Source: an uncultured Mycobacterium sp. (GTDB lineage Bacteria; Actinomycetota; Actinomycetes; Mycobacteriales; Mycobacteriaceae). Taken from it: a stretch of 24,000 nucleotides of DNA. The position numbers and the translations under genes are program-made. The notes under the pieces were generated by a model. That model ran no database searches and had not been told where the DNA came from. It was given only the letters and a program-made list of their open reading frames with translations. The DNA is taken from contig CAYFMA010000024.1 of the NCBI GenBank assembly GCA_964344085.1, forward strand, positions 16,896 to 40,895, given 5' to 3'. Positions 11,880 to 22,106 of this stretch are shown here, piece by piece (position 1 is the stretch's first letter; every line of letters starts with the position of its first letter).

Positions 11880-12938
11880 GTGACTCCAAGCCCCGCTGAC
11901 CTGCGCCGCTGGCGCCGTCACCTGGCCAATGAGCGCGCCGAGGCCGCGGTCTACCGCGACCTCGCCCAGCGTCACACCGGCGAGGAACGCGAGATCCTGG
12001 CCGCCATCGCCGCCTCCGAGGAACGTCACCAGCAGCACTGGCTCGATCTGCTGGGCGACCAGGTGGGCGAGCCGGTGCGGGCCGACCTCGGGACCCGCGC
12101 GCTGGCCTTCCTGGCCCGCCATTTCGGCTCGGTGTTCGTGCTCGCTCTGGTGCAGCGGTTCGAGGCGCGCAACGTCTACGAGGACGACGCCGACGCCACC
12201 CCGACGATGGCCGCCGACGAACAGATCCACGAAGAGGTCATCCGGGCGCTGGCCGGCCGCGGCCGCGACCGGCTGTCCGGAACCTTCCGCGCCGCGGTGT
12301 TCGGCGCCAACGACGGGCTCGTCAGCAATCTCGCGCTGATCCTCGGTGTCAGCGCCAGCGGAGTCTCCGGTCACACCATCCTGGTGACCGGCCTGGCCGG
12401 GCTGCTGGCCGGTGCGCTCTCGATGGGCGCGGGGGAGTACGTCTCGGTGAGCTCGCAGCGCGAACTCCTGGCGGCCTCAGCCCCCAGCCCCAATGTGGGT
12501 ACCGCTCTGCTGCAGCTCGACGTCGACGCCAACGAACTCGAATTGGTCTATCGCGCAAGGGGAATGACGGCCGAGGAGGCGGCCCGGCATGCGGCCGAGG
12601 TGCTGCGCAACGAGATCGGGCACGAACCGCCGGGCCACGACGCCGACCGGCATGAGGCGGTCGGAACCGGACTCGGTGCGGCGTTGTCGAGCTTCATGTT
12701 CTTCGCGACCGGTGCGCTGATCCCCGTGTTGCCGTATCTGTTCGGGCTCAGCGGGACCACCGCTGTGGTGGTCGCCGCGGTGCTCGTCGGCATCACCCTG
12801 CTGGGCACCGGCGTGATCGTCGGTCTGCTCTCCGGGGCGCCGCCGCTGCTGCGGGCACTGCGTCAGCTGATGATCGGCTACGGCGCGGCCGGGATCACCT
12901 ATCTGCTGGGTCTGCTGGTCGGCGCGGGCGTCGGCTGA
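11880..12938 (+). CDS. mbfA: MbfA-like membrane-bound ferritin: N-terminal ferritin/erythrin-like domain fused to a VIT1/CCC1 Fe/Mn transporter domain
   Basis: ExxH-type di-iron motif (SEERHQQHW) in the N-terminal part. VIT1 hallmark AAVFGANDGLVSNLALILGV and C-terminal TM helices. Confidence 0.75.
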   Translation: MTPSPADLRRWRRHLANERAEAAVYRDLAQRHTGEEREILAAIAASEERHQQHWLDLLGDQVGEPVRADLGTRALAFLARHFGSVFVLALVQRFEARNVYEDDADATPTMAADEQIHEEVIRALAGRGRDRLSGTFRAAVFGANDGLVSNLALILGVSASGVSGHTILVTGLAGLLAGALSMGAGEYVSVSSQRELLAASAPSPNVGTALLQLDVDANELELVYRARGMTAEEAARHAAEVLRNEIGHEPPGHDADRHEAVGTGLGAALSSFMFFATGALIPVLPYLFGLSGTTAVVVAAVLVGITLLGTGVIVGLLSGAPPLLRALRQLMIGYGAAGITYLLGLLVGAGVG

Positions 12939-12967
12939 GTTTCGGTGCAGGGCTGTAAGCGTGTGAC

Positions 12968-13034
12968 TTTTTGCCCGCCTCGTAGCGACAACGCTCGCGC
13001 GCCGGAGGAGTTGTCGCTACGAGGCGGGCAAAAA
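12968..13034. terminator. Perfect 25-bp inverted repeat (17-nt loop) flanked by T5/A5: putative bidirectional intrinsic terminator or palindromic repeat element
   Basis: TTTTTGCCCGCCTCGTAGCGACAAC (12968-12992) is the exact reverse complement of 13010-13034. It sits between convergent genes ending at 12938 and 13085. Confidence 0.55.
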
Positions 13035-13056
13035 GAGAGTCGGGTGGGCGGCGGGT

Positions 13057-13096
13057 CTAGAGCGCCGGGCCTAGAGCGCCGGGCCTAGAACTGGGC
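13057..13096. repeat. 14-bp tandem repeat CTAGAGCGCCGGGC x2 plus a degenerate third unit that contains the stop codon of the 13085-13396 gene
   Basis: Copies at 13057-13070 and 13071-13084, and CTAGAACTGGGC at 13085-13096. The arm AGAGCGCCGGG (13073-13083) is also complementary to 13097-13107. Confidence 0.8.
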
Positions 13097-13396
13097 CCCG
13101 GCGCTCTGCATCAGTCCGATGCAGGTGCCGATGTTCTGCGGAGTGCAGGGGACACCCCGCACCGTCGGCAACTCGTTGGGGCCGCCGCCGACGATCGGCG
13201 GGCCACTGTTGGGCACGATCGCGCCGGGGATCTGGCCGCTGGGCATCTGACCGCCGCCGCCCTGCCCGGAGACGCACACACCGTCGAAGCTGGTCTGGAC
13301 CGTGCCGTAGGGGCAGGCCTGGGCGGGTGCCGCGGTCGCGCACAGGCCGGCGCCGACCAGTACGGCGCAAGCTCCGGCGCTGAGCAACGACCTCAC
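13085..13396 (-). CDS. Small secreted Gly/Pro-rich protein with four cysteines (103 aa)
   Basis: Signal peptide RSLLSAGACAVLVGAGLCATAAPAQA. The mature part has CPYG, GVCVSG, VPCTP and GTCIG. I moved the start from 13747 to the GTG at 13396, 6 nt after a TACTCT box. The longer ORF overlaps the divergent gene and has a non-protein-like N-terminus. Confidence 0.65.
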   Translation of the reverse strand: MRSLLSAGACAVLVGAGLCATAAPAQACPYGTVQTSFDGVCVSGQGGGGQMPSGQIPGAIVPNSGPPIVGGGPNELPTVRGVPCTPQNIGTCIGLMQSAGAQF

Positions 13397-13522
13397 CGGG
13401 GAAGAGTAACCCGCCGCAGTCTGGAAGGTTGCTGAACGACCTCGTGGGAACCTGCTGTGAATACCGCCGAAATGGCCTCTGAGCGGCGCATTCACCCCCG
13501 AAGGCCACGTACGTTCGCAGCT

Positions 13523-13786
13523 ATGAACGAGACCATGAAACGACTCTTCGTCGCCGGTGTCCTCGCCGGGTTCGCCGTCCTCGGAGTGGGAGTCGGGGCT
13601 TCGGCGACGGCCGCCGCCAGTGACATGAACATCAATGCCACCGGAGGCTCGGGAACAGCCGTCGACAAGGACGGAACCCAGGGCGATATCAAGCCCGCCG
13701 TCCAGGGGGCCCCGGACGACGACAACGACCAGGACGCCTGGCTGCACGGATCCCCGGACTTCACGCCGCAGTACAAGGCCAAATAG
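13523..13786 (+). CDS. Small secreted protein (87 aa, acidic mature region), immediately upstream of the CuMMO genes on the same strand
   Basis: Signal peptide MKRLFVAGVLAGFAVLGVGVGASATAAA. ATG at 13523 lies 7 nt after a TACGTT box. The ATG at 13535 is an alternative start. Confidence 0.6.
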   Translation: MNETMKRLFVAGVLAGFAVLGVGVGASATAAASDMNINATGGSGTAVDKDGTQGDIKPAVQGAPDDDNDQDAWLHGSPDFTPQYKAK

Positions 13787-13886: not shown

Positions 13887-14717
13887 ATGACAACCATGGA
13901 CGTCCGGCACGACGCCGCCAAAGCCTCCGGCGCCGCCACCAAGAAGAAGAAGTGGGGCCCGGTCGCCCAGGGCGGGTCACTGTGGACCTGGGCCGTCGCG
14001 ATGGCCCCGATCGTCGCGATCTTCATCGGTTGGCGCACCTACCAGCAGGTTTTCGCCTTCGAGTACGGTCTTGACGCGCACAGCGCCGGGTTCAACAAGT
14101 ACTGGCTGACCCTGGCCCTGGTGAACATGACGGTGCTGCCGGCCATCGCCGGCGCCTGGTACGTCTGGATGTGGTTCTCCGGCCAGAAGCTGAACAAGCA
14201 GCCCAGCCGTGAAGAGGAGAGCCGCCGGATCTGGAACCTGTGGCTGATCATCCTGTCCTTCACCACCGCCGTGTTCGGCGCGGCGAGCTACTGCGCCGAG
14301 CAGGACGCCTCGTGGCACCAGATCGTCACCCGCGACACCGCCTTCACCCCGAGCCACGACGTGCTGTTCTACGGCTCGTTCCCGGTGCTGATCTACCTGG
14401 CCGTCGGCGCCTTCATCTACGCCCGCACCCGGCTGCCGCACCTGTTCGGCGGCAAGATGGTTCCGGTGTCCTTCGCCCTGATCATCGGCGGCACCGTGCT
14501 GCTGCTGTTCCAGGTCGCGATGAACGAGTTCGGCCACTCCTTCTTCCAGGCCGAGGAACTGTTCGCCGCTCCGCTGCACTGGCCGTTCGTGCTGTTCGGT
14601 TACCTGCTCGCCGGAACCTTCGCGGTGTGGTTCGCCACCGTGCCCCGTGTCGCTGAGCTGGCCCGCCAGGAGCGGCAGATGGCTGAGACCCCGGAGCTCG
14701 ACGCCGCGAACGCATGA
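13887..14717 (+). CDS. hmoC: Copper membrane monooxygenase subunit C (AmoC/PmoC family; hydrocarbon monooxygenase HmoC-type)
   Basis: AEQDASWHQIVTRDTAFTPSH gives D140-x3-H144-x12-H157. NEFGHSFFQAEELFAAPLH gives N213-x3-H217-x13-H231. These match the spacing of the two PmoC metal sites. ATG at 13887 is preceded by SD GGAAGG. The track ORF start at 13635 was rejected. Confidence 0.9.
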   Translation: MTTMDVRHDAAKASGAATKKKKWGPVAQGGSLWTWAVAMAPIVAIFIGWRTYQQVFAFEYGLDAHSAGFNKYWLTLALVNMTVLPAIAGAWYVWMWFSGQKLNKQPSREEESRRIWNLWLIILSFTTAVFGAASYCAEQDASWHQIVTRDTAFTPSHDVLFYGSFPVLIYLAVGAFIYARTRLPHLFGGKMVPVSFALIIGGTVLLLFQVAMNEFGHSFFQAEELFAAPLHWPFVLFGYLLAGTFAVWFATVPRVAELARQERQMAETPELDAANA

Positions 14718-15493
14718 CCGCCTCGGAAACCGCGGCACTCGAGGAGGCAGGACCGCCCTCGAAGCCGCTACTGAGTCGACGCTGGGATTTCCTGTTCATC
14801 TTCGCGGCCATGTTTCTGGTCATGGGCGCGTTCCACGTCAACCAGATGCTGTTCTCCGGTGACTGGTCGTTCTGGGCGGACTGGAAGGACCGGGAGTTCT
14901 GGCCACTGGTCACTCCCGCCGTCGGCATGATCGTGGTGGCCGCACTGCAGTACATCACCTGGTCTCTGCTGCGGCTTCCGGTCGGAGCGACCTTCGGTGC
15001 GGTGGTCCTGATGCCTGCCCAGTGGCTGTCGCGATGGGGCAGCTTCTCGGAATGGACGCACATTCCGCTGAACTTCACCTGGCCGGAGACCTTCGTCCTG
15101 GCTGCGGTGATCCTCGACGTCGTGCTGGCGGTCACCCGCAGCTACATCCTCACGTCGATGATCGGCGGCATGCTGTGGGGAGCGGTGTTCTGGTTCTTCA
15201 ACTTCACCGGTCTGTCGCCGTACCTGGCGCCGGTGGACTTCCACGGCACCCTGCTCACCGTCGCCGACACCATCTCCTTCCACGCGGCGCGCACCCAGAC
15301 TCCGGAATACCTGCGCATCATCGAGGAGGGCCACCTCAAGGCACTCGTCAGTGACATCACCATCGTGGTGGCCTTCTTCGCCGGCATGCTGTCGGTGGCG
15401 GCGTACTGGATCGGTCTTCTGATCGGCAAGTACCTCGCGGTCTGGCCGATCGGCAAGTTCTTCAAGCTGCAGACCGATTCGGCCGTCAAGTGA
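14714..15493 (+). CDS. hmoA: Copper membrane monooxygenase subunit A (AmoA/PmoA family; HmoA-type)
   Basis: Hallmark GDWSFWADWKDREFWP and QTPEYLRIIEEG align by eye along the whole length with PmoA. ATGA overlap with hmoC. Confidence 0.9.
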   Translation: MTASETAALEEAGPPSKPLLSRRWDFLFIFAAMFLVMGAFHVNQMLFSGDWSFWADWKDREFWPLVTPAVGMIVVAALQYITWSLLRLPVGATFGAVVLMPAQWLSRWGSFSEWTHIPLNFTWPETFVLAAVILDVVLAVTRSYILTSMIGGMLWGAVFWFFNFTGLSPYLAPVDFHGTLLTVADTISFHAARTQTPEYLRIIEEGHLKALVSDITIVVAFFAGMLSVAAYWIGLLIGKYLAVWPIGKFFKLQTDSAVK

Positions 15494-16704
15494 TTCGCCG
15501 TCTGTTCCCGCTGTTCGCGGTCGTCGGGCTGCTCATGCTGATGGCCCCGCCGCCAATCGCCTCGGCGCACGGAGAGCAGGGGCAACAGGCCTTCGAGCGC
15601 ACCTCCACGGTGCTCTTCTACGACGTCAAGTTCTCCACCACGACCGTCGACATCAATGCGCCGCTGACCATCACCGGCACGGTGCGGGTGATGAACTCCT
15701 GGCCCGACCACACCATCGGCCCGCCGGAACTGGGCTACCTGACCGTCAACGAGCCCGGTCCGGTGCTCTCGGTTCAGGAGCGCTGGATGTCGGGGATGTT
15801 CACCCCGCAGTCGGTCAATCTGACCAAGGGTGGGATCTATCCGTTCAAGCTCGTCCTCAAGGGACGGGTACCGGGCACCTGGCACGTGCACCCGGCACTG
15901 GCCGTCAAGGGCACCGGCACCCTGATGGGACCGGGACAGTGGGTGACGGTCAACGACGCCGGCGGTCCGTTCACCGAACCGCAGCAGCTCTCCGACGGCA
16001 GTGTCGTCGACCTCGCGCACTACGGCCTGAAACGGGTCGCGTGGTGGCACATCATCTCCTTCCTGTTCGGCGCCGGTTACGTCTGGTACTGGTTGCGGCA
16101 GAACTCGTTGAATCGCCTGCTGGTGGTCAACGCGGGTGACGGCGCGACCCTGGTGACCAAACAGGAGCGCCGGGTCAGCGTCCTGTTCGCCATCGGAGCG
16201 CTGGCGCTGGGCATCGGCGGCTTCGTCTACGCCACCGTCTCCGACGGCCCGCACATCCCGTTGCAGGTGGCCCGGGTGACCCCGGTGCCGGAACTGCCCA
16301 ACGCACTGGGCGCCGGGCTGAACACCACCGTGCAGAAGGCAGTCTTCGGCGATAAGACCGGCAAGCTCGACCTGTCGGTGAAGGTCACCAACAACACCGA
16401 TCAGCCGGTGACGTTCGACCATCTGCAGTTCGCCGATTACATCGTCGCCAGCCCCGACGCGGTCGAGCAGGTGCCGGTCGAGCAGCGGGCGACCGTCACG
16501 CCGTCGGGTGCGATCCCGCCGAAGCAGACCCGGGAGATGACCATCAGCCTGGATGCGCGCGCGTTGCGCAGCCAGAACCTGTTGCCGCTCAACGACGCTC
16601 AGATCCGGCTCACCGGTCTGATGTTCTTCCGGGACGCCAAGGGCCAGACCTCGGCCACCGAGATCAACGAACTGACCTCCGGCATCCTGCCGCAGTACGG
16701 ATAA
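15490..16704 (+). CDS. hmoB: Copper membrane monooxygenase subunit B (AmoB/PmoB family; HmoB-type)
   Basis: Signal peptide ends ASA|HGEQ, so the mature N-terminal residue is His27. WHVHP supplies H132/H134. Two internal TM helices separate two beta-rich domains. GTGA overlap with hmoA. Confidence 0.9.
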   Translation: MIRRLFPLFAVVGLLMLMAPPPIASAHGEQGQQAFERTSTVLFYDVKFSTTTVDINAPLTITGTVRVMNSWPDHTIGPPELGYLTVNEPGPVLSVQERWMSGMFTPQSVNLTKGGIYPFKLVLKGRVPGTWHVHPALAVKGTGTLMGPGQWVTVNDAGGPFTEPQQLSDGSVVDLAHYGLKRVAWWHIISFLFGAGYVWYWLRQNSLNRLLVVNAGDGATLVTKQERRVSVLFAIGALALGIGGFVYATVSDGPHIPLQVARVTPVPELPNALGAGLNTTVQKAVFGDKTGKLDLSVKVTNNTDQPVTFDHLQFADYIVASPDAVEQVPVEQRATVTPSGAIPPKQTREMTISLDARALRSQNLLPLNDAQIRLTGLMFFRDAKGQTSATEINELTSGILPQYG

Positions 16705-16709
16705 CGGCC

Positions 16710-16880
16710 ATGACCACCACCATCCTTGCCCACGGCGGTCAGATCACCGGCGATGAGATGGCGCTGATCGGTGGCGGGCTGTTCTTCGCGATGGCCTTCC
16801 CGGCGGTGGCCCTGGTGATCGCCATGCGTCGCGGCCGGCGGCACCAGAACGCGAATCAGACCGATGAGGCGAGTGTGTGA
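16710..16880 (+). CDS. Single-pass membrane micro-protein (56 aa), not in the supplied ORF track
   Basis: ATG lies 5 nt after the hmoB stop. Translation is MTTTILAHGGQITGDEMALIGGGLFFAMAFPAVALVIAMRRGRRHQNANQTDEASV. It has one TM helix followed by RRGRRH (positive-inside rule) and high-GC3 codons. Confidence 0.6.
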   Translation: MTTTILAHGGQITGDEMALIGGGLFFAMAFPAVALVIAMRRGRRHQNANQTDEASV

Positions 16881-16893
16881 AGGGGCGCTGCAG

Positions 16894-17097
16894 ATGAACT
16901 ACACGGTTCTGGCGATGACGCTGGCGATCCTCGTGCTCGCGGTGTTTCTGCCGTTGTCGGCGATCGCCTTCATCATGATCAAGTCCACCTCCTCCAGTGA
17001 CGATTTCAGCCTTGGTGCAGTGAGTCTTCAAGACGAGTTGCATAATTTCCTGGCTGAATTCGAGAGCGGTTCGCATACCGCCGACAACTGGAGATGA
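16894..17097 (+). CDS. Single-pass membrane micro-protein (67 aa) with an acidic C-terminal region
   Basis: ATG at 16894 is preceded by SD AAGGGG (16880-16885). N-terminal TM is MNYTVLAMTLAILVLAVFLPLSAIAFIMI. It ends 1 nt before the next gene. The C-terminal half has unusually low GC3, so the call is tentative. The track start at 16864 is less likely. Confidence 0.45.
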   Translation: MNYTVLAMTLAILVLAVFLPLSAIAFIMIKSTSSSDDFSLGAVSLQDELHNFLAEFESGSHTADNWR

Positions 17098-17098
17098 T

Positions 17099-17539
17099 GT
17101 GTCGATCAAATACGCCGGCGCTGCGGCGTCGGTCGTGGCTCTGGCCGCGCTGACCGCGGGATGCTCGGCCAAGACGGCCACGACCACGGCGTCATCTGCA
17201 TCGCCGGCGGCCTCCAGTGCGGTGTCATCGGTGGCTCCGTCGGCGTCCTCATCGGCTTCGTCGGTCCCCACGCCCGTCGGCCTGACCATCCCGGTCACCA
17301 TCGTCAAGGGTGTGGTCACTCCGGCCAACGGCGAGTACGAGGCCACCGTCGGCGAGCGGATCGAGTTCGACGTCGACAGCGACGCCGCCGACGAACTGCA
17401 TGTGCACGCGGTGCCCGAGCATGAGTTCGCGGTGAAGCCCGGCAGCCAGAGCTTCAGCTTCGTCGTGAAGGTGCCCGGTCAGGTGGTCGTCGAATTGCAC
17501 AGCACCGACAAGACGGTGGCCACACTGACGGTGCGGTGA
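17099..17539 (+). CDS. Lipoprotein with a Ser/Ala/Thr/Pro linker and a C-terminal cupredoxin-like beta-sandwich domain bearing four His (no Cys or Met)
   Basis: Lipobox LTAGC. A long S/A/T/P-rich linker. Domain pattern GERIEFDVDSDAADELHVHAVPEHEFAVKPG...PGQVVVELHS resembles cupredoxin-fold strand patterns. GTG start is preceded by SD GGAG. Confidence 0.8.
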   Translation: MSIKYAGAAASVVALAALTAGCSAKTATTTASSASPAASSAVSSVAPSASSSASSVPTPVGLTIPVTIVKGVVTPANGEYEATVGERIEFDVDSDAADELHVHAVPEHEFAVKPGSQSFSFVVKVPGQVVVELHSTDKTVATLTVR

Positions 17540-18822
17540 CATCCCCCGCGAGCTTCCCCCGGCACGGTCTGGGCGGCAGCGCCGATCTGCCGATCCCGTT
17601 CACCTACACGGTGGTCGCAGCGGCATGGGCGCTGAGCTTCTCGTTCGTCATCCTGATCTTCGCCTGGCGCACACCGCGGCTGCGCGCGGATTCACCGGGG
17701 CTCGCGCTGCCGTCATGGGTCAACGCCTTCGCGTCCTCGCCGGTGACCCGCCGGATACTGGCCGCGCTCGGCCTGGCCTTCACCGCGTGGGTCGCCATGG
17801 CCGGTTTCCTCGGGCCGGCCAAGTCGAGCCAGAACGCACTGCCCGCAACGGTTTACGTGCTGCTGTGGGTCGGGCTGGTGGCGCTGTCGCTGATCTTCGG
17901 ACCGGTGTGGAAACTGATCTCGCCGGTGCGGGCCACCCATCCCGGTCCCGGGCGCAGGACCTATCCGCAGCGGTGGGGTTACTGGCCGGGTGTCATCGGC
18001 CTCTTCGCGTTCGCCTGGATGGAACTGGCCTCGCCGGATCCGGGATCGGTTCGTGCGCTGCTGATCTGGTGCTGCGTCTATCTCGCCGTCACCTCGCTCG
18101 GCGCCGCGGTCTACGGCAGCCGCTGGTGTGAGAGCGGCGATCCGTTCGAGGTCTACAGCACGCTGGTCTCGCACCTGTCGTTCGTGGGCCCGGGCGCACG
18201 TTCGGGGACCTGGGTGCTGCGCAACCCGCTGAACAATCTGCAGCGCGTCGATGTCCGCGCCGGGTCGGTGGCGCTGACCGCAACACTGCTCGGCTCAACG
18301 GCGTTCGACAGTTTCTCGGCACGGCCGGGCTGGCATCGCTGGGTCGACTCGGTCGCGCATTCTCCGGTGCAGGCCACCGGTATCCGCACCATCGGCCTAC
18401 TGGCGATGATCGCACTGGTCGGCGGATCGTTCTGGCTCGCAACCCGAGCGGTACCAGGCCTGCAAGCCGCGCAGCGCCGCGCACTGCCCGGCCTGATGTC
18501 CCCGTCGCTGGTGCCGATCATCGTCGGCTATGTGTTCGCGCACTACATCTCCTATCTGCTGGAGAAGGGTCAGGTGGCGGTCCGGTTGCTGCTCGGCATG
18601 GACCCGGGCGACGTCAACTACTTCCTGTCCAACCACCCCACCCTGCTGGCCACGCTCAAGGTGCTGTTCGTGCTCACCGGGCACGTGCTGGGGGTGATGG
18701 CAGCCCACGACCGCTCCCTGCGGGTACTGCCGGCGCGCCGGCAACTCACCGGGCAGTTGCCGCTGCTGATGGTGATGGTGCTCTTCACCTGCGGCGGCCT
18801 CTTCCTGCTTTTCGCGGGGTAG
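17536..18822 (+). CDS. Polytopic (about 10 TM) integral membrane protein of unknown function
   Basis: GTGA overlap with the preceding lipoprotein gene. N-terminal HGLGGSADLPIP motif, about ten hydrophobic segments, a GDPFEVYS loop, and TM-embedded GHVLGVMAAHD. Confidence 0.85.
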   Translation: MTSPASFPRHGLGGSADLPIPFTYTVVAAAWALSFSFVILIFAWRTPRLRADSPGLALPSWVNAFASSPVTRRILAALGLAFTAWVAMAGFLGPAKSSQNALPATVYVLLWVGLVALSLIFGPVWKLISPVRATHPGPGRRTYPQRWGYWPGVIGLFAFAWMELASPDPGSVRALLIWCCVYLAVTSLGAAVYGSRWCESGDPFEVYSTLVSHLSFVGPGARSGTWVLRNPLNNLQRVDVRAGSVALTATLLGSTAFDSFSARPGWHRWVDSVAHSPVQATGIRTIGLLAMIALVGGSFWLATRAVPGLQAAQRRALPGLMSPSLVPIIVGYVFAHYISYLLEKGQVAVRLLLGMDPGDVNYFLSNHPTLLATLKVLFVLTGHVLGVMAAHDRSLRVLPARRQLTGQLPLLMVMVLFTCGGLFLLFAG

Positions 18823-20678: not shown

Positions 20679-22106
20679 ATGGTCAGTACCCCCGCCGCAC
20701 GCCGCCACCGGGTGGTCATCATCGGATCCGGGTTCGGCGGCCTCAACGCCGCCAAGGCCCTCAAGCGGGCCGACGTCGACGTCACCCTGGTCGCCAAGAC
20801 CACCAGCCATCTGTTCCAGCCGCTGCTCTACCAGCTGGCCACCGGCATCCTCTCAGCCGGCGATATCGCGCCCACCACCCGTCTCATCCTCAAGAAGAAC
20901 CGGAACTGCAAGGTACTGCTCGGCGATGTCGAGGACATCGACCTGGCCAACGGGACGGTCACCTCGAAGCTGATGTCGATGGAGACCGTACTGCCGTTCG
21001 ACAGCCTGATCGTGGCGGCCGGCGCCCAGCAGAACTACTTCGGCCACGAGGAGTTCGCCACCTTCGCCCCCGGCATGAAGACCATCGACGACGCCCTGGA
21101 GTTGCGCGGCCGGATCCTCGGCGCGTTCGAGGCGGCCGAGGTGACAACCGATCCCGCGGAGCGGGCACGCCGGCTGACGTTCGTCATCGTCGGCGGTGGA
21201 CCGACCGGTGTGGAACTCGCGGGTCAGATCGCCGAACTGGCCCGGCGCACCCTGCCGGGTGCGTTCCGCACCATCGACCCGACCGAGTGCCGGGTGCTGC
21301 TGTTCGACGGGTCACCGTTCGTGCTGTCGCCGATGGGCGAGAAGCTCGGCATGAAGGCCACTCAGCGGCTGGAGAAGATGGGGGTGGAGATCTTCCCCGG
21401 CACCACGGTCACCAACGTGGACTACATGGGGATCACCTACAAGGACAAGCAGACCGGCGTCGAGACCCGCGTCGAGTGCGCCTGCAAGGTGTGGTCGGCC
21501 GGCGTCTCGGCGAGCCCGTTGGGGGAGATGATCGCCGCCCAGTGCGAGGGCACCGAGGTGGACCGGTCCGGACGCGTCGTCGTCGAACCGGATCTCACCG
21601 TCAAGGGGTACCCGAACGTCTTCGTCGTCGGTGACATGGCCGCAGTGCCGGGCGTTCCCGGGGTGGCGCAGGGCGCCATCCAGGGCGCGAAATATGCGGC
21701 GAAGACGATCAAGCGGATGACGCAGGGCACCGACGACCCGGCGGCCCGGGAGCCGTTCAAGTACTGGGACAAGGGCTCGATGGCCACCATCTCGCGCCAC
21801 CATGCGGTGGCCAAGGTCGGCAAGTTCGAGTTCAGCGGCTTCTTCGCCTGGCTCGCCTGGCTTTTCCTGCACCTGCTCTACCTGGTGGGCTTCAAGAACC
21901 GCATCAGCACACTGCTGAGCTGGACGCTGACCTTCACCTCCAACGGCCGCGGTCAGCTGGCCACCACCAGCCAGTGGGTCTACGGCCGGCTGGCCATCGA
22001 CATCGTCGAGAAACAGTTGGAGGAGGCCATCGACGACGCCGAGGAGCGGGCCGACGCCGTCGACGTCTCGCTGGGTGCGGCACTGAGCCGCGAGCATCAG
22101 CGCTAG
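20679..22106 (+). CDS. ndh: Type II NADH dehydrogenase (NDH-2)
   Basis: RVVIIGSGFGGLNAAKAL (first Rossmann GxGxxG), LFQPLLYQLATG, VIVGGGPTGVELAG (second GxGxxG), and a C-terminal amphipathic membrane-anchor region. Confidence 0.9.
   Translation: MVSTPAARRHRVVIIGSGFGGLNAAKALKRADVDVTLVAKTTSHLFQPLLYQLATGILSAGDIAPTTRLILKKNRNCKVLLGDVEDIDLANGTVTSKLMSMETVLPFDSLIVAAGAQQNYFGHEEFATFAPGMKTIDDALELRGRILGAFEAAEVTTDPAERARRLTFVIVGGGPTGVELAGQIAELARRTLPGAFRTIDPTECRVLLFDGSPFVLSPMGEKLGMKATQRLEKMGVEIFPGTTVTNVDYMGITYKDKQTGVETRVECACKVWSAGVSASPLGEMIAAQCEGTEVDRSGRVVVEPDLTVKGYPNVFVVGDMAAVPGVPGVAQGAIQGAKYAAKTIKRMTQGTDDPAAREPFKYWDKGSMATISRHHAVAKVGKFEFSGFFAWLAWLFLHLLYLVGFKNRISTLLSWTLTFTSNGRGQLATTSQWVYGRLAIDIVEKQLEEAIDDAEERADAVDVSLGAALSREHQR

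Follow-up and report, generated by a model that had tools for sequence, protein, structure and literature searches.

Which copper membrane monooxygenase (CuMMO) does the hmoCAB cluster of an uncultured Mycobacterium sp. encode, and where does its operon end? These questions are raised by a stretch of 24,000 nucleotides (contig CAYFMA010000024.1 of assembly GCA_964344085.1, positions 16,896 to 40,895 of the forward strand), which is called the window here and is numbered from its first letter. The same DNA is part of NODE_122 (50 kb) of the ENA metagenome assembly ERZ9869192, and it is also found in the Logan assembly of ERR2345104. An earlier, sequence-only reading had described hmoC, hmoA and hmoB as an operon for an enzyme of the hydrocarbon monooxygenase (HMO) type. 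We consider it very probable that the window carries an intact CuMMO of the Mycobacteriaceae HMO clade, in a chromosomal context and encoded in a seven-gene unit, for whose accessory genes we offer roles as a proposal. The mycobacterial HMO clade has been known since 2011–2012, and hmoCAB is a further member of it, which will not surprise the specialist. What is new is that the operon continues into four conserved, previously unnamed downstream genes, including one for a small membrane protein linked to the B-subunit gene, xmoB.

The three core genes are as follows.

hmoC, 13887-14717, + strand: CuMMO subunit C, 276 amino acids
hmoA, 14714-15493, + strand: CuMMO subunit A, 259 amino acids
hmoB, 15490-16704, + strand: CuMMO subunit B, 404 amino acids

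They are translationally coupled in the order C-A-B. The ATG of hmoA lies in a 4-nucleotide ATGA overlap with the hmoC stop (junction GCATGACC), hmoB starts at a GTG in a 4-nucleotide GTGA overlap with the hmoA stop (junction AAGTGATT), and a ribosome-binding-like site, GGAAGG, lies upstream of hmoC. The coordinates, strand and overlaps given by the sequence-only reading were all exact, and an independent gene caller had made identical calls on the public source contig. All three open reading frames (ORFs) are intact, with a G+C content at third codon positions (GC3) of 0.88–0.93, like the flanking genes of this 67% G+C sequence.

The Pfam models by which that reading had proposed to check the genes were all matched far over their curated cut-offs and nearly full length: AmoC (PF04896) by HmoC (E=2e-55, 188.2 bits against a cut-off of 26.7), AMO (PF02461) by HmoA (E=4e-63, 213.9 bits against 27.5) and Monooxygenase_B (PF04744) by HmoB (E=2e-94, 317.4 bits against 22.7). 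In a phmmer search of the PDB, the top solved-structure matches of the three proteins were chains of ammonia monooxygenase (AMO) and particulate methane monooxygenase (pMMO), at E values of 1e-37 to 1e-60; those of HmoC were AmoC/PmoC, with E as low as 8e-45, and HmoA matched PmoA/AmoA at E of about 1e-54. The hallmark GDWxFWxDWKDR that had been ascribed to HmoA is found as GDWSFWADWKDR at residues 49-60, and the residues of this motif are invariant in a 26-sequence alignment. Neither of the grounds that had been named for giving up the assignment was encountered, since the hidden Markov model (HMM) matches are significant and the singled-out Asp, His and Asn residues align with the copper ligands of pMMO. 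With three Pfam models matched over their gathering scores, the C-A-B order and the aligned ligands at CuB, CuC and CuD, hmoCAB shows what defines the superfamily and is confirmed as an intact CuMMO operon.

The ligands themselves were found at the nucleotides at which they had been placed. By alignment, D140/H144/H157 of HmoC (nt 14304-14357) correspond to Asp156/His160/His173, the CuC ligands of Methylococcus capsulatus Bath PmoC, and N213/H217/H231 (nt 14523-14579) to Asn227/His231/His245, the CuD ligands; ligand identities are those of PMC12576850, and the Bath numbering comes from the alignment of 8sqw_C, a chain identical to 1yew_C but offset by 44. The signal peptide of HmoB ends in ...IASA, leaving His27 as the predicted mature N-terminus (nt 15568). 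It aligns with the first residue of the mature PmoB/AmoB PDB chains, and H132-x-H134 (nt 15883-15891; CuB) aligns with positions 133/135 of 4PHZ_A, as expected of a CuB-type site. The claim that every known copper-ligand set is present was nevertheless slightly overstated: it stands for CuB, CuC and CuD, but the bis-His CuA site of Bath (His48/His72) is absent from the alignment of the window HmoB, which has L42 and R66 there. As a comparison set we used 80 related loci from GTDB representatives, one genome per species. The CuA pair is also absent from nearly all other non-nitrifier loci among them, the partial cases being the first His only in two non-nitrifier loci and the second His only in nitrifier loci. 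The other nine positions read D-H-H, N-H-H and H-H-H wherever covered, from Mycobacteriaceae to Nitrosomonas. Because they are invariant throughout the 80 loci, the copper ligands are the family norm and carry no discriminating information on clade or substrate.

Which CuMMO is it, then? In a neighbour-joining tree of subunit A only (48 sequences, 238 columns, 200 bootstraps), the window HmoA falls inside a 100%-bootstrap clade with Mycolicibacterium chubuense NBB4, ENV421, M. sphagni ENV482, Rhodococcus WAY2, Mycobacterium sp. SM1 and the metagenome-assembled genome (MAG) Bu41, its nearest neighbours being two Mycobacteriaceae MAGs at 90-91% identity. Outside the NBB4 clade lie a Nocardioides/Lentzea-type clade, gammaproteobacterial PmoA, Nitrosomonas AmoA and HMO-like sequences from Chloroflexota, Dormibacterota, Binatia and Rokubacteria. 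Identity to the NBB4 proteins is 61% for HmoC, 74% for HmoA and 63% for HmoB. The database proteins nearest to the window HmoA are these:

92-76% identity: metagenome sequences
74% identity: M. chubuense NBB4 'copper-containing alkane monooxygenase alpha subunit'
74% identity: Rhodococcus sp. WAY2
68-62% identity: other Mycolicibacterium / Mycobacterium
59% identity: Micromonosporaceae
50% identity: Smaragdicoccus

The NCBIfam equivalogs for pMMO and AMO (TIGR03078-80, NF041557, NF041640, NF041641) were matched as well, all under their curated cut-offs: HmoC scored 206.8 against 319 and 180.3 against 280.6, HmoA 229.7 (AmoA_BACT) against 290 and 204.9 against 318, and HmoB 272.7 against 336 and 197.1 (CH4_NH3mon_ox_B) against 394.9. 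Such scores fit a clade distinct from pMMO and AMO.

A position beside the CuC site is more discriminating than the copper ligands. HmoC has Ala152 (in RDTAF/RDTAL), as do all 59 non-nitrifier loci with RDTA[FL], whereas the equivalent residue is Ser in Nitrosomonas-type loci and Asp in the pMMO of Bath and Methylocystis. Ala152 is the A151 position of NBB4, and an A151D substitution in the NBB4 enzyme reduces butane oxidation more than ethane oxidation (PMC13058606).

These data bear directly on the idea that hmoCAB encodes a true pMMO or AMO and that its host is a pMMO-type methanotroph or a nitrifier. The pMMO/AMO copper ligands are present, and the top PDB matches are AMO and pMMO chains; but the ligands are common to all CuMMO clades and silent on substrate, the HmoA tree sets the window apart from both PmoA and AmoA with strong support, every equivalog score is too low, and HmoC has Ala152 instead of Asp (pMMO) or Ser (AMO). 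No hao or methanol dehydrogenase gene is found in the window. The two methanotrophic mycobacteria described so far are reported with soluble methane monooxygenase only. According to a 2025 commentary, mycobacteria with a pMMO 'have not been found' and yet cannot be excluded (PMC12542659). The window hmoCAB does not alter this picture, and we regard a pMMO or AMO here as highly improbable. The comparison with solved pMMO and AMO structures (7S4H, 4PHZ, 9CL6, 9LEG) is one of kinship: the three subunits are homologous, and the CuB, CuC and CuD ligands and the PmoB N-terminal His align, whereas the window enzyme belongs to a separate clade, lacks the bis-His CuA and has Ala instead of Asp or Ser next to CuC. 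Likewise, Pfam and NCBIfam detect no homologue of pmoD/amoD, copC or copD in the window, which has small ORFs, a cupredoxin lipoprotein and a membrane protein instead.

The tree, the NBB4 identities, the equivalog scores and Ala152 thus bear out the HMO-type assignment, and the suggested A-subunit phylogeny, here by neighbour joining, places HmoA with NBB4 and apart from PmoA and AmoA. The nearest described relative, NBB4 HmoCAB (plasmid pMYCCH.01, MYCCH_RS28770-28760), has the same gene order, clade, CuB/CuC/CuD ligands and Ala. The further statement that HMO-like CuMMOs form a small actinobacterial clade did not hold, as relatives occur in 468 stretches of GTDB species representatives from many phyla (PMC12533140). 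The record labels of three comparison loci (L024, L042 and L060) seem at odds with their tree neighbours, which suggests binning errors or recent transfer; among them, a 'Vicinamibacterales'-labelled locus is near-identical to the Nocardioides type, and other labels are 'Enterobacteriaceae' and 'Halobacteria'.

Does the operon end at hmoB, as the earlier reading had it? It does not: at least four more tightly packed genes follow on the + strand, to position 18822.

orf56, 16710-16880, + strand: 56 amino acids, starts 5 nucleotides past the hmoB stop
orf77, 16894-17097 (alternative start 16864), + strand: 13-nucleotide gap from 16894, or 17-nucleotide overlap from 16864
lipo146, 17099-17539, + strand: starts 1 nucleotide past the orf77 stop
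mem428, 17536-18822, + strand: 428 amino acids, GTG start in a GTGA overlap with the lipo146 stop

All four were called by the gene caller of the source contig, and homologues, annotated as hypothetical proteins, are present in ENV421, ENV482, NBB4 and the closest MAG, locus L001, with which synteny extends over all seven genes at 60-91% amino-acid identity. A transcription unit from hmoC to mem428 (13887-18822), seven genes joined by overlaps or gaps of at most 13 nucleotides, is therefore most likely. The window form of the cluster is the most compact one, seven contiguous genes with no catabolic or regulatory genes mixed in, so that the genes travelling with hmoCAB are easy to see. In NBB4 the four accessory homologues are also found, as two small hypotheticals right after hmoB and a pair of hypotheticals of 145 and 453 amino acids; there, in contrast to the window, 4 kb separate hmoB from the lipoprotein/membrane pair downstream. 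No family was found for orf56, orf77, lipo146, mem428 or the downstream orf171 in NCBIfam or in Pfam at an E limit of 10, at which the HMMER speed filters lose the majority of matches with E above about 0.1; lipo146 gave only chance-level matches to domains of unknown function.

The integrity of this unit also speaks to whether the locus might be what is left of an island gained by horizontal transfer, decaying and no longer functional. The G+C content is slightly lower over hmoCAB (0.648–0.653 in window 14000-17000) than in the flanking kilobases (0.67–0.70), the left flank is unlike that of L001, and catabolic partner genes are missing. The lower G+C is at most a weak trace of an old transfer, however, and decay finds no echo in the genes: none of the seven ORFs is shortened relative to its family or has a frameshift or an internal stop, every catalytic ligand is intact, translational coupling is kept, GC3 is 0.84–0.93 (0.74 in orf77), and the seven-gene synteny with L001 persists. 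We give a remnant scarcely any credence. Of the whole block, orf77 is the most AT-rich gene, with a G+C of 0.54 and the GC3 just given.

What, then, are the two small proteins that follow HmoB? The sequence of orf56 begins MTTTILAHGGQITGDEMALIGGGLFFAMAFPAVALVIAMRRGRR. It comprises a short acidic N-terminal tail with the residues ILAHGG, one transmembrane helix and then RRGRR, for which the positive-inside rule predicts an N-out, C-in orientation; the tail motif of the family, [ILV]-[LV]-A-H-[GSA]-G, is conserved. In Actinomycetota, Chloroflexota and Dormibacterota, inspection of the fetched loci revealed a similar small ORF right behind xmoB. From 14 seeds we built an iterated HMM, in place of a strict regular expression that missed many variants, and ran it against all six-frame stop-to-stop ORFs of at least 30 amino acids in 82 sequences (the window, the NBB4 locus and the 80 loci, in total about 1.2 Mb). 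It returned 35 matches at E<0.01, all 35 on the same strand as xmoB and just downstream of it; in 34 of them the ORF ends no more than about 540 nucleotides from the xmoB stop, and in the other, L040, 1076 nucleotides after the located stop. There were no matches elsewhere in the 82 sequences, and none in the 14 evaluable Nitrosomonas/Burkholderiales loci. The family is rare: a single-sequence search of 1.84 billion representative proteins recovered only 16 relatives at E<=1e-3, and a PDB sequence search gave chance-level matches only. Even the NBB4 homologue is annotated as a hypothetical protein, and a search of the full-text literature for a description of orf56, or for the names hmoD, bmoD, xmoD and CABD, found nothing relevant, though the original NBB4 and Nocardioides CF8 papers may mention small ORFs.

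The second small ORF is narrower in its distribution. Counted from the ATG at 16894, upstream of which there is a GAAGGGG site, orf77 would be 67 amino acids long, and from the ATG at 16864, 77. It comprises one transmembrane helix and, at the C-terminus, an acidic motif, LGxVSLxDEL..F..EFExG. An orf77 HMM matched only seven loci, all of the Mycobacteriaceae clade (the window, L001, L003, L004, L005, L011 and NBB4; E 1e-28 to 1e-50), and in each of these it is the second ORF after hmoB. In the Nocardioides/Lentzea-type loci (L019-L024, L027, L043, L047, L049, L053; ~12370-13070) the post-xmoB small ORF is longer, about 95-115 amino acids, with a conserved SGYRD...LLFSGAYF tail, and is followed by a conserved membrane protein of about 200 amino acids (start MP..FAGDPMRPERR...) that has no counterpart in the window.

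Cryo-electron microscopy offers an attractive model for such proteins. Supernumerary single helices of varied length and orientation, encoded by small unannotated ORFs, have been seen beside PmoC and AmoC, and a widespread role for them in CuMMOs has been proposed (PMC11725843, PMC12804982). Like these helices and the archaeal AmoX/Y/Z, orf56 and orf77 are small, single-helix and previously unnamed, and they could likewise sit beside subunit C. The known helix ORFs have 23 residues in Methylocystis sp. Rockwell and 46 residues in Nitrosomonas europaea, the latter being the 'AmoD' of N. halophila. The likeness is one of form, as orf56 has no sequence similarity to any PDB chain and, unlike the supernumerary helices, has a conserved extracytoplasmic A-H-G-G tail. 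The genes are also placed differently: orf56 directly follows xmoB, whereas in N. europaea the helix comes from a 46-residue ORF that is not annotated, and in N. halophila the protein bears a locus tag of its own. Judged from its gene linkage, orf56 would be the obvious candidate for the supernumerary helix role in HMO-type enzymes.

The last two genes suggest an extracytoplasmic function. lipo146 has a lipobox, AGC, at C22, a low-complexity linker rich in Ser, Ala and Thr, and then an 87-residue domain (60-146) that is modelled by AlphaFold2 with a pLDDT >95. Foldseek matched this model to PDB structures of the ba3 oxidase CuA domain, Brucella FtrB, the EfeO N-domain, amicyanin and plastocyanin (E of about 5e-6 to 5e-5, probability 1.00), and the predicted fold of residues 60-146 is that of a cupredoxin; a PDB sequence search gave only chance-level matches. 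The domain has a conserved His/Glu cluster (H101-V-H103, E107-H108, E132, H134). Across 28 homologues, H101, V102, E132 and other residues are invariant, and H103, E107, H108 and H134 occur in at least 90%. A His/Glu metal site is plausible. A type-1 or CuA site is impossible, because the mature domain has no Cys, the sole Cys of the protein being that of the lipobox. Homologues of lipo146 lie near CuMMO genes in at least nine fetched loci.

Could lipo146 be the PmoD or AmoD of this operon? These proteins are defined by a cupredoxin-like periplasmic domain, two invariant Cys residues (Cx7MxH...C) and a C-terminal transmembrane helix, and their genes often belong to extended monooxygenase operons (PMC6189053). 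lipo146 shares with them the cupredoxin fold, the extracytoplasmic location, the membrane anchor and the place in an extended monooxygenase operon. We nevertheless reject the identity, which the missing Cys already rules out: there is no Cys pair and no C-terminal helix, the conserved residues are His and Glu, and the anchor is an N-terminal lipobox, where PmoD uses its C-terminal helix. The cupredoxin-like partners of metal permeases, Brucella FtrB and the EfeO N-domain, have a fold like that of lipo146; no sequence homology of lipo146 to PmoD, FtrB or EfeO was detectable. A CopC/CopD pair was also considered for lipo146 and mem428 and rejected, as neither Pfam (E limit 10) gave a CopC or CopD match nor NCBIfam anything relevant.

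mem428 is modelled by AlphaFold2 as an all-helical protein with many transmembrane helices (pLDDT 87, pTM 0.88), and its model has no significant fold match in the PDB (best E=0.019, TM 0.18-0.26). It has about 6000 homologues, mostly labelled 'hypothetical', in Mycobacteriaceae and Rhodococcus. The closest named relatives (58-67% identity) come mostly from CuMMO-bearing strains, namely NBB4, WAY2, an M. fluoranthenivorans plasmid, Ca. M. alkanivorans and ENV421, and homologues lie near CuMMO genes in 18 fetched loci. Before the first helix, an N-terminal tail, H10-G-L-G-G-S-x-D17-L-P (residues 10-19, window 17563-17592), is invariant in 39 sequences. This HGLGG tail resembles the A-H-G-G tail of orf56 (residues 7-10, window 16728-16739), and both are predicted to be extracytoplasmic and to precede the first helix. 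A common metal-binding or docking role of the two tails is possible.

The lipoprotein/membrane pair also has a life of its own. In M. rhodesiae NBB3 (L084, 3595-7293) and Rhodococcus triatomae (L085, 3412-7305), a mem428 homologue belongs to a four-gene operon without a CuMMO:

Gene 1, L084 and L085: polytopic membrane protein of 610-623 amino acids, no family
Gene 2, L084 and L085: single-helix protein of 56-87 amino acids with an ILADHS-type tail
Gene 3, L084 and L085: cupredoxin lipoprotein homologue (weak Cupredoxin_1 match, E=0.04)
Gene 4, L084 and L085: mem428 homologue

The small protein of gene 2 is the top match of the orf56 HMM in these two loci, but it is a weak one (E=8e-4 and 0.08) that rests largely on the helix. 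The product of gene 1 has the His motifs DVSLHIG, NPAHYF, DDxWHRIFGQD and GPTHLM, and its PDB sequence search gave chance-level matches only. The four genes look like an uncharacterised, widespread actinobacterial module; CuMMO clusters seem to possess a paralogous copy of its lipoprotein/membrane pair that is dedicated to them.

How would the seven products work together? By homology to solved pMMO and AMO structures, HmoC, HmoA and HmoB would form an (alpha-beta-gamma)3 membrane complex with mono-copper sites, CuB in HmoB (His27, His132, His134) and CuC (D140/H144/H157) and CuD (N213/H217/H231) in HmoC. Oxygen activation and substrate hydroxylation would take place at the HmoC copper site or sites, in the CuC/CuD region, with electrons derived from quinol. 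The NBB4 enzyme carries out a copper-dependent, allylthiourea-sensitive oxidation of C2-C4 alkanes; its CuC ligands are essential, and a CuB mutant retains some activity (review PMC13058606). By analogy with it, C2-C4 alkanes and alkenes would be the likely substrates. orf56, and in mycobacteria also orf77, would be supernumerary single-helix subunits, while lipo146 and mem428 may handle copper, or possibly electrons, for HmoCAB on the extracytoplasmic face. It is tempting to go further and to propose that orf56 is a fourth subunit of the HMO-type CuMMOs of Actinomycetota, Chloroflexota and their relatives, a counterpart, encoded within the operon, of the supernumerary helices of pMMO and AMO, and that lipo146 and mem428 make up with it a dedicated assembly or copper-delivery module; we put this forward as possible, though somewhat short of probable.

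Several points weigh against the account just given, and they touch both its accessory and its catalytic part. The lipo146 and mem428 families are not CuMMO-specific, because they have homologues in an operon without CuMMO genes. The predicted N-out orientation of orf56 differs from the N-in orientation reported for the AMO helix (PMC12804982). A scan of the window for promoters and terminators detected no consensus. With an identity to NBB4 of only 61-74%, the enzyme may differ from it in substrate range. Finally, the 24-kb window has no gene for an alcohol dehydrogenase, an aldehyde dehydrogenase, an acyl-CoA synthetase or a transcription regulator, and the earlier remark that none is adjacent to the operon holds throughout that length. 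In NBB4, ENV421 and ENV482, hmoCAB is surrounded by genes for an N,N-dimethyl-4-nitrosoaniline (NDMA)-dependent methanol dehydrogenase (mdo), an aldehyde dehydrogenase, an AMP-binding enzyme, AcoR-like, GAF and SigC regulators and a soluble di-iron monooxygenase (SDIMO). Because these catabolic and regulatory genes are missing here, growth-linked alkane use is unsupported by the local context.

The last two points are those on which one could argue for a functional enzyme of the HMO clade whose substrate is not a C2-C4 alkane (alkenes only, oxygenates such as acetone, or other small molecules) or whose activity is cometabolic. Oxidation of acetone by a verrucomicrobial PmoCAB homologue, as reported in PMC8630023, gives such a substrate a precedent. 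On the other hand, the window is nested in the clade of the only characterised mycobacterial HMO, and the pocket-proximal Ala152 is common to the window and NBB4. The dehydrogenases, moreover, may sit elsewhere in the genome, the known DNA being a 50-kb contig. We consider this alternative unlikely, though by no means far-fetched, and the earlier caution that the substrate range cannot be read from the sequence is upheld. The reading that we prefer remains an intact HMO-clade CuMMO encoded with its accessory genes.

What does such a locus add? hmoCAB brings a further environmental Mycobacteriaceae lineage into the HMO clade, which is now known from many genomes, and its value to surveys of short-chain alkane oxidisers is modest. 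The post-xmoB single-helix protein, found at 35 loci from several phyla, is a concrete candidate for a supernumerary helix; the conserved downstream genes, and this one above all, are a lead, modest but open to testing, on the current question of what supernumerary components CuMMOs have. Of all CuMMOs, HMO alone is reported in a 2026 review (PMC13058606) as having been expressed heterologously as a complete complex and mutated. If a fourth subunit and an accessory module do exist, the genes may be of importance to the heterologous expression of CuMMOs, which has so far been very limited, and the M. smegmatis system already in use for expressing HMO would allow a direct test of them; it could show whether the helices and the cupredoxin/membrane pair have a part in assembly, copper loading or activity.

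The surroundings of the seven genes are of the housekeeping type, with genes for WS/DGAT, ThrE, an amidohydrolase, a polysaccharide deacetylase, a metallophosphoesterase, a methyltransferase, a K+ channel, VIT1, a Sap-like protein, a type II NADH dehydrogenase (NDH-2), a ParB-like nuclease and an amino-acid permease; scans with Rfam and for tRNAs gave nothing informative in the window. This differs from NBB4, whose cluster is plasmid-borne and lies amid mdo, an AcoR-like regulator, an AMP-binding enzyme, a GAF regulator, SigC and the smoXYB1C1Z soluble monooxygenase; the window has VIT1, Sap-like and NDH-2 genes in its flanks and no SDIMO nearby.

NDH-2 (window 20679-22106, + strand; Pyr_redox_2 and NDH2_C) lies 1.9 kb downstream of the operon and has an 88% identical counterpart in L001. 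We considered it as a dedicated supplier of reductant and rejected this role, since the gene is part of a chromosomal flank conserved with L001 and does not adjoin the operon. That it lies so near is probably a coincidence, and NDH-2 is still a plausible supplier of quinol to a CuMMO.

Directly upstream of the hmo block, window 11880-12938 (+ strand) encodes a protein of 352 amino acids with a VIT1 iron/manganese transporter domain (E=3e-54) and a weak N-terminal rubrerythrin/ferritin-like match (E=0.009). Just upstream of hmoC, window 13457-13786 (+ strand; 13523-13786 according to the gene caller) would encode a small secreted-looking, Asp-rich protein with a signal peptide and with no family in Pfam (E limit 10) or NCBIfam. 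A 68% identical homologue lies upstream of hmoC in the MAG locus L002, and none was found in L001. An opposite-strand ORF, 13085-13747, overlaps it and is partly conserved, so that the coding strand is uncertain.

The seven-gene block shares its right boundary with L001, and the right flank (orf171, Sap-like, orf170, NDH-2) is syntenic there; the left neighbours differ, L001 having a Mce-type operon, as judged by eye, in place of VIT1. Between the mem428 and orf171 homologues, L001 has a further gene (14843-16147, - strand) for a protein of 434 amino acids, which its N-terminal PPGP-type sequence led us to guess to be a cytochrome P450.

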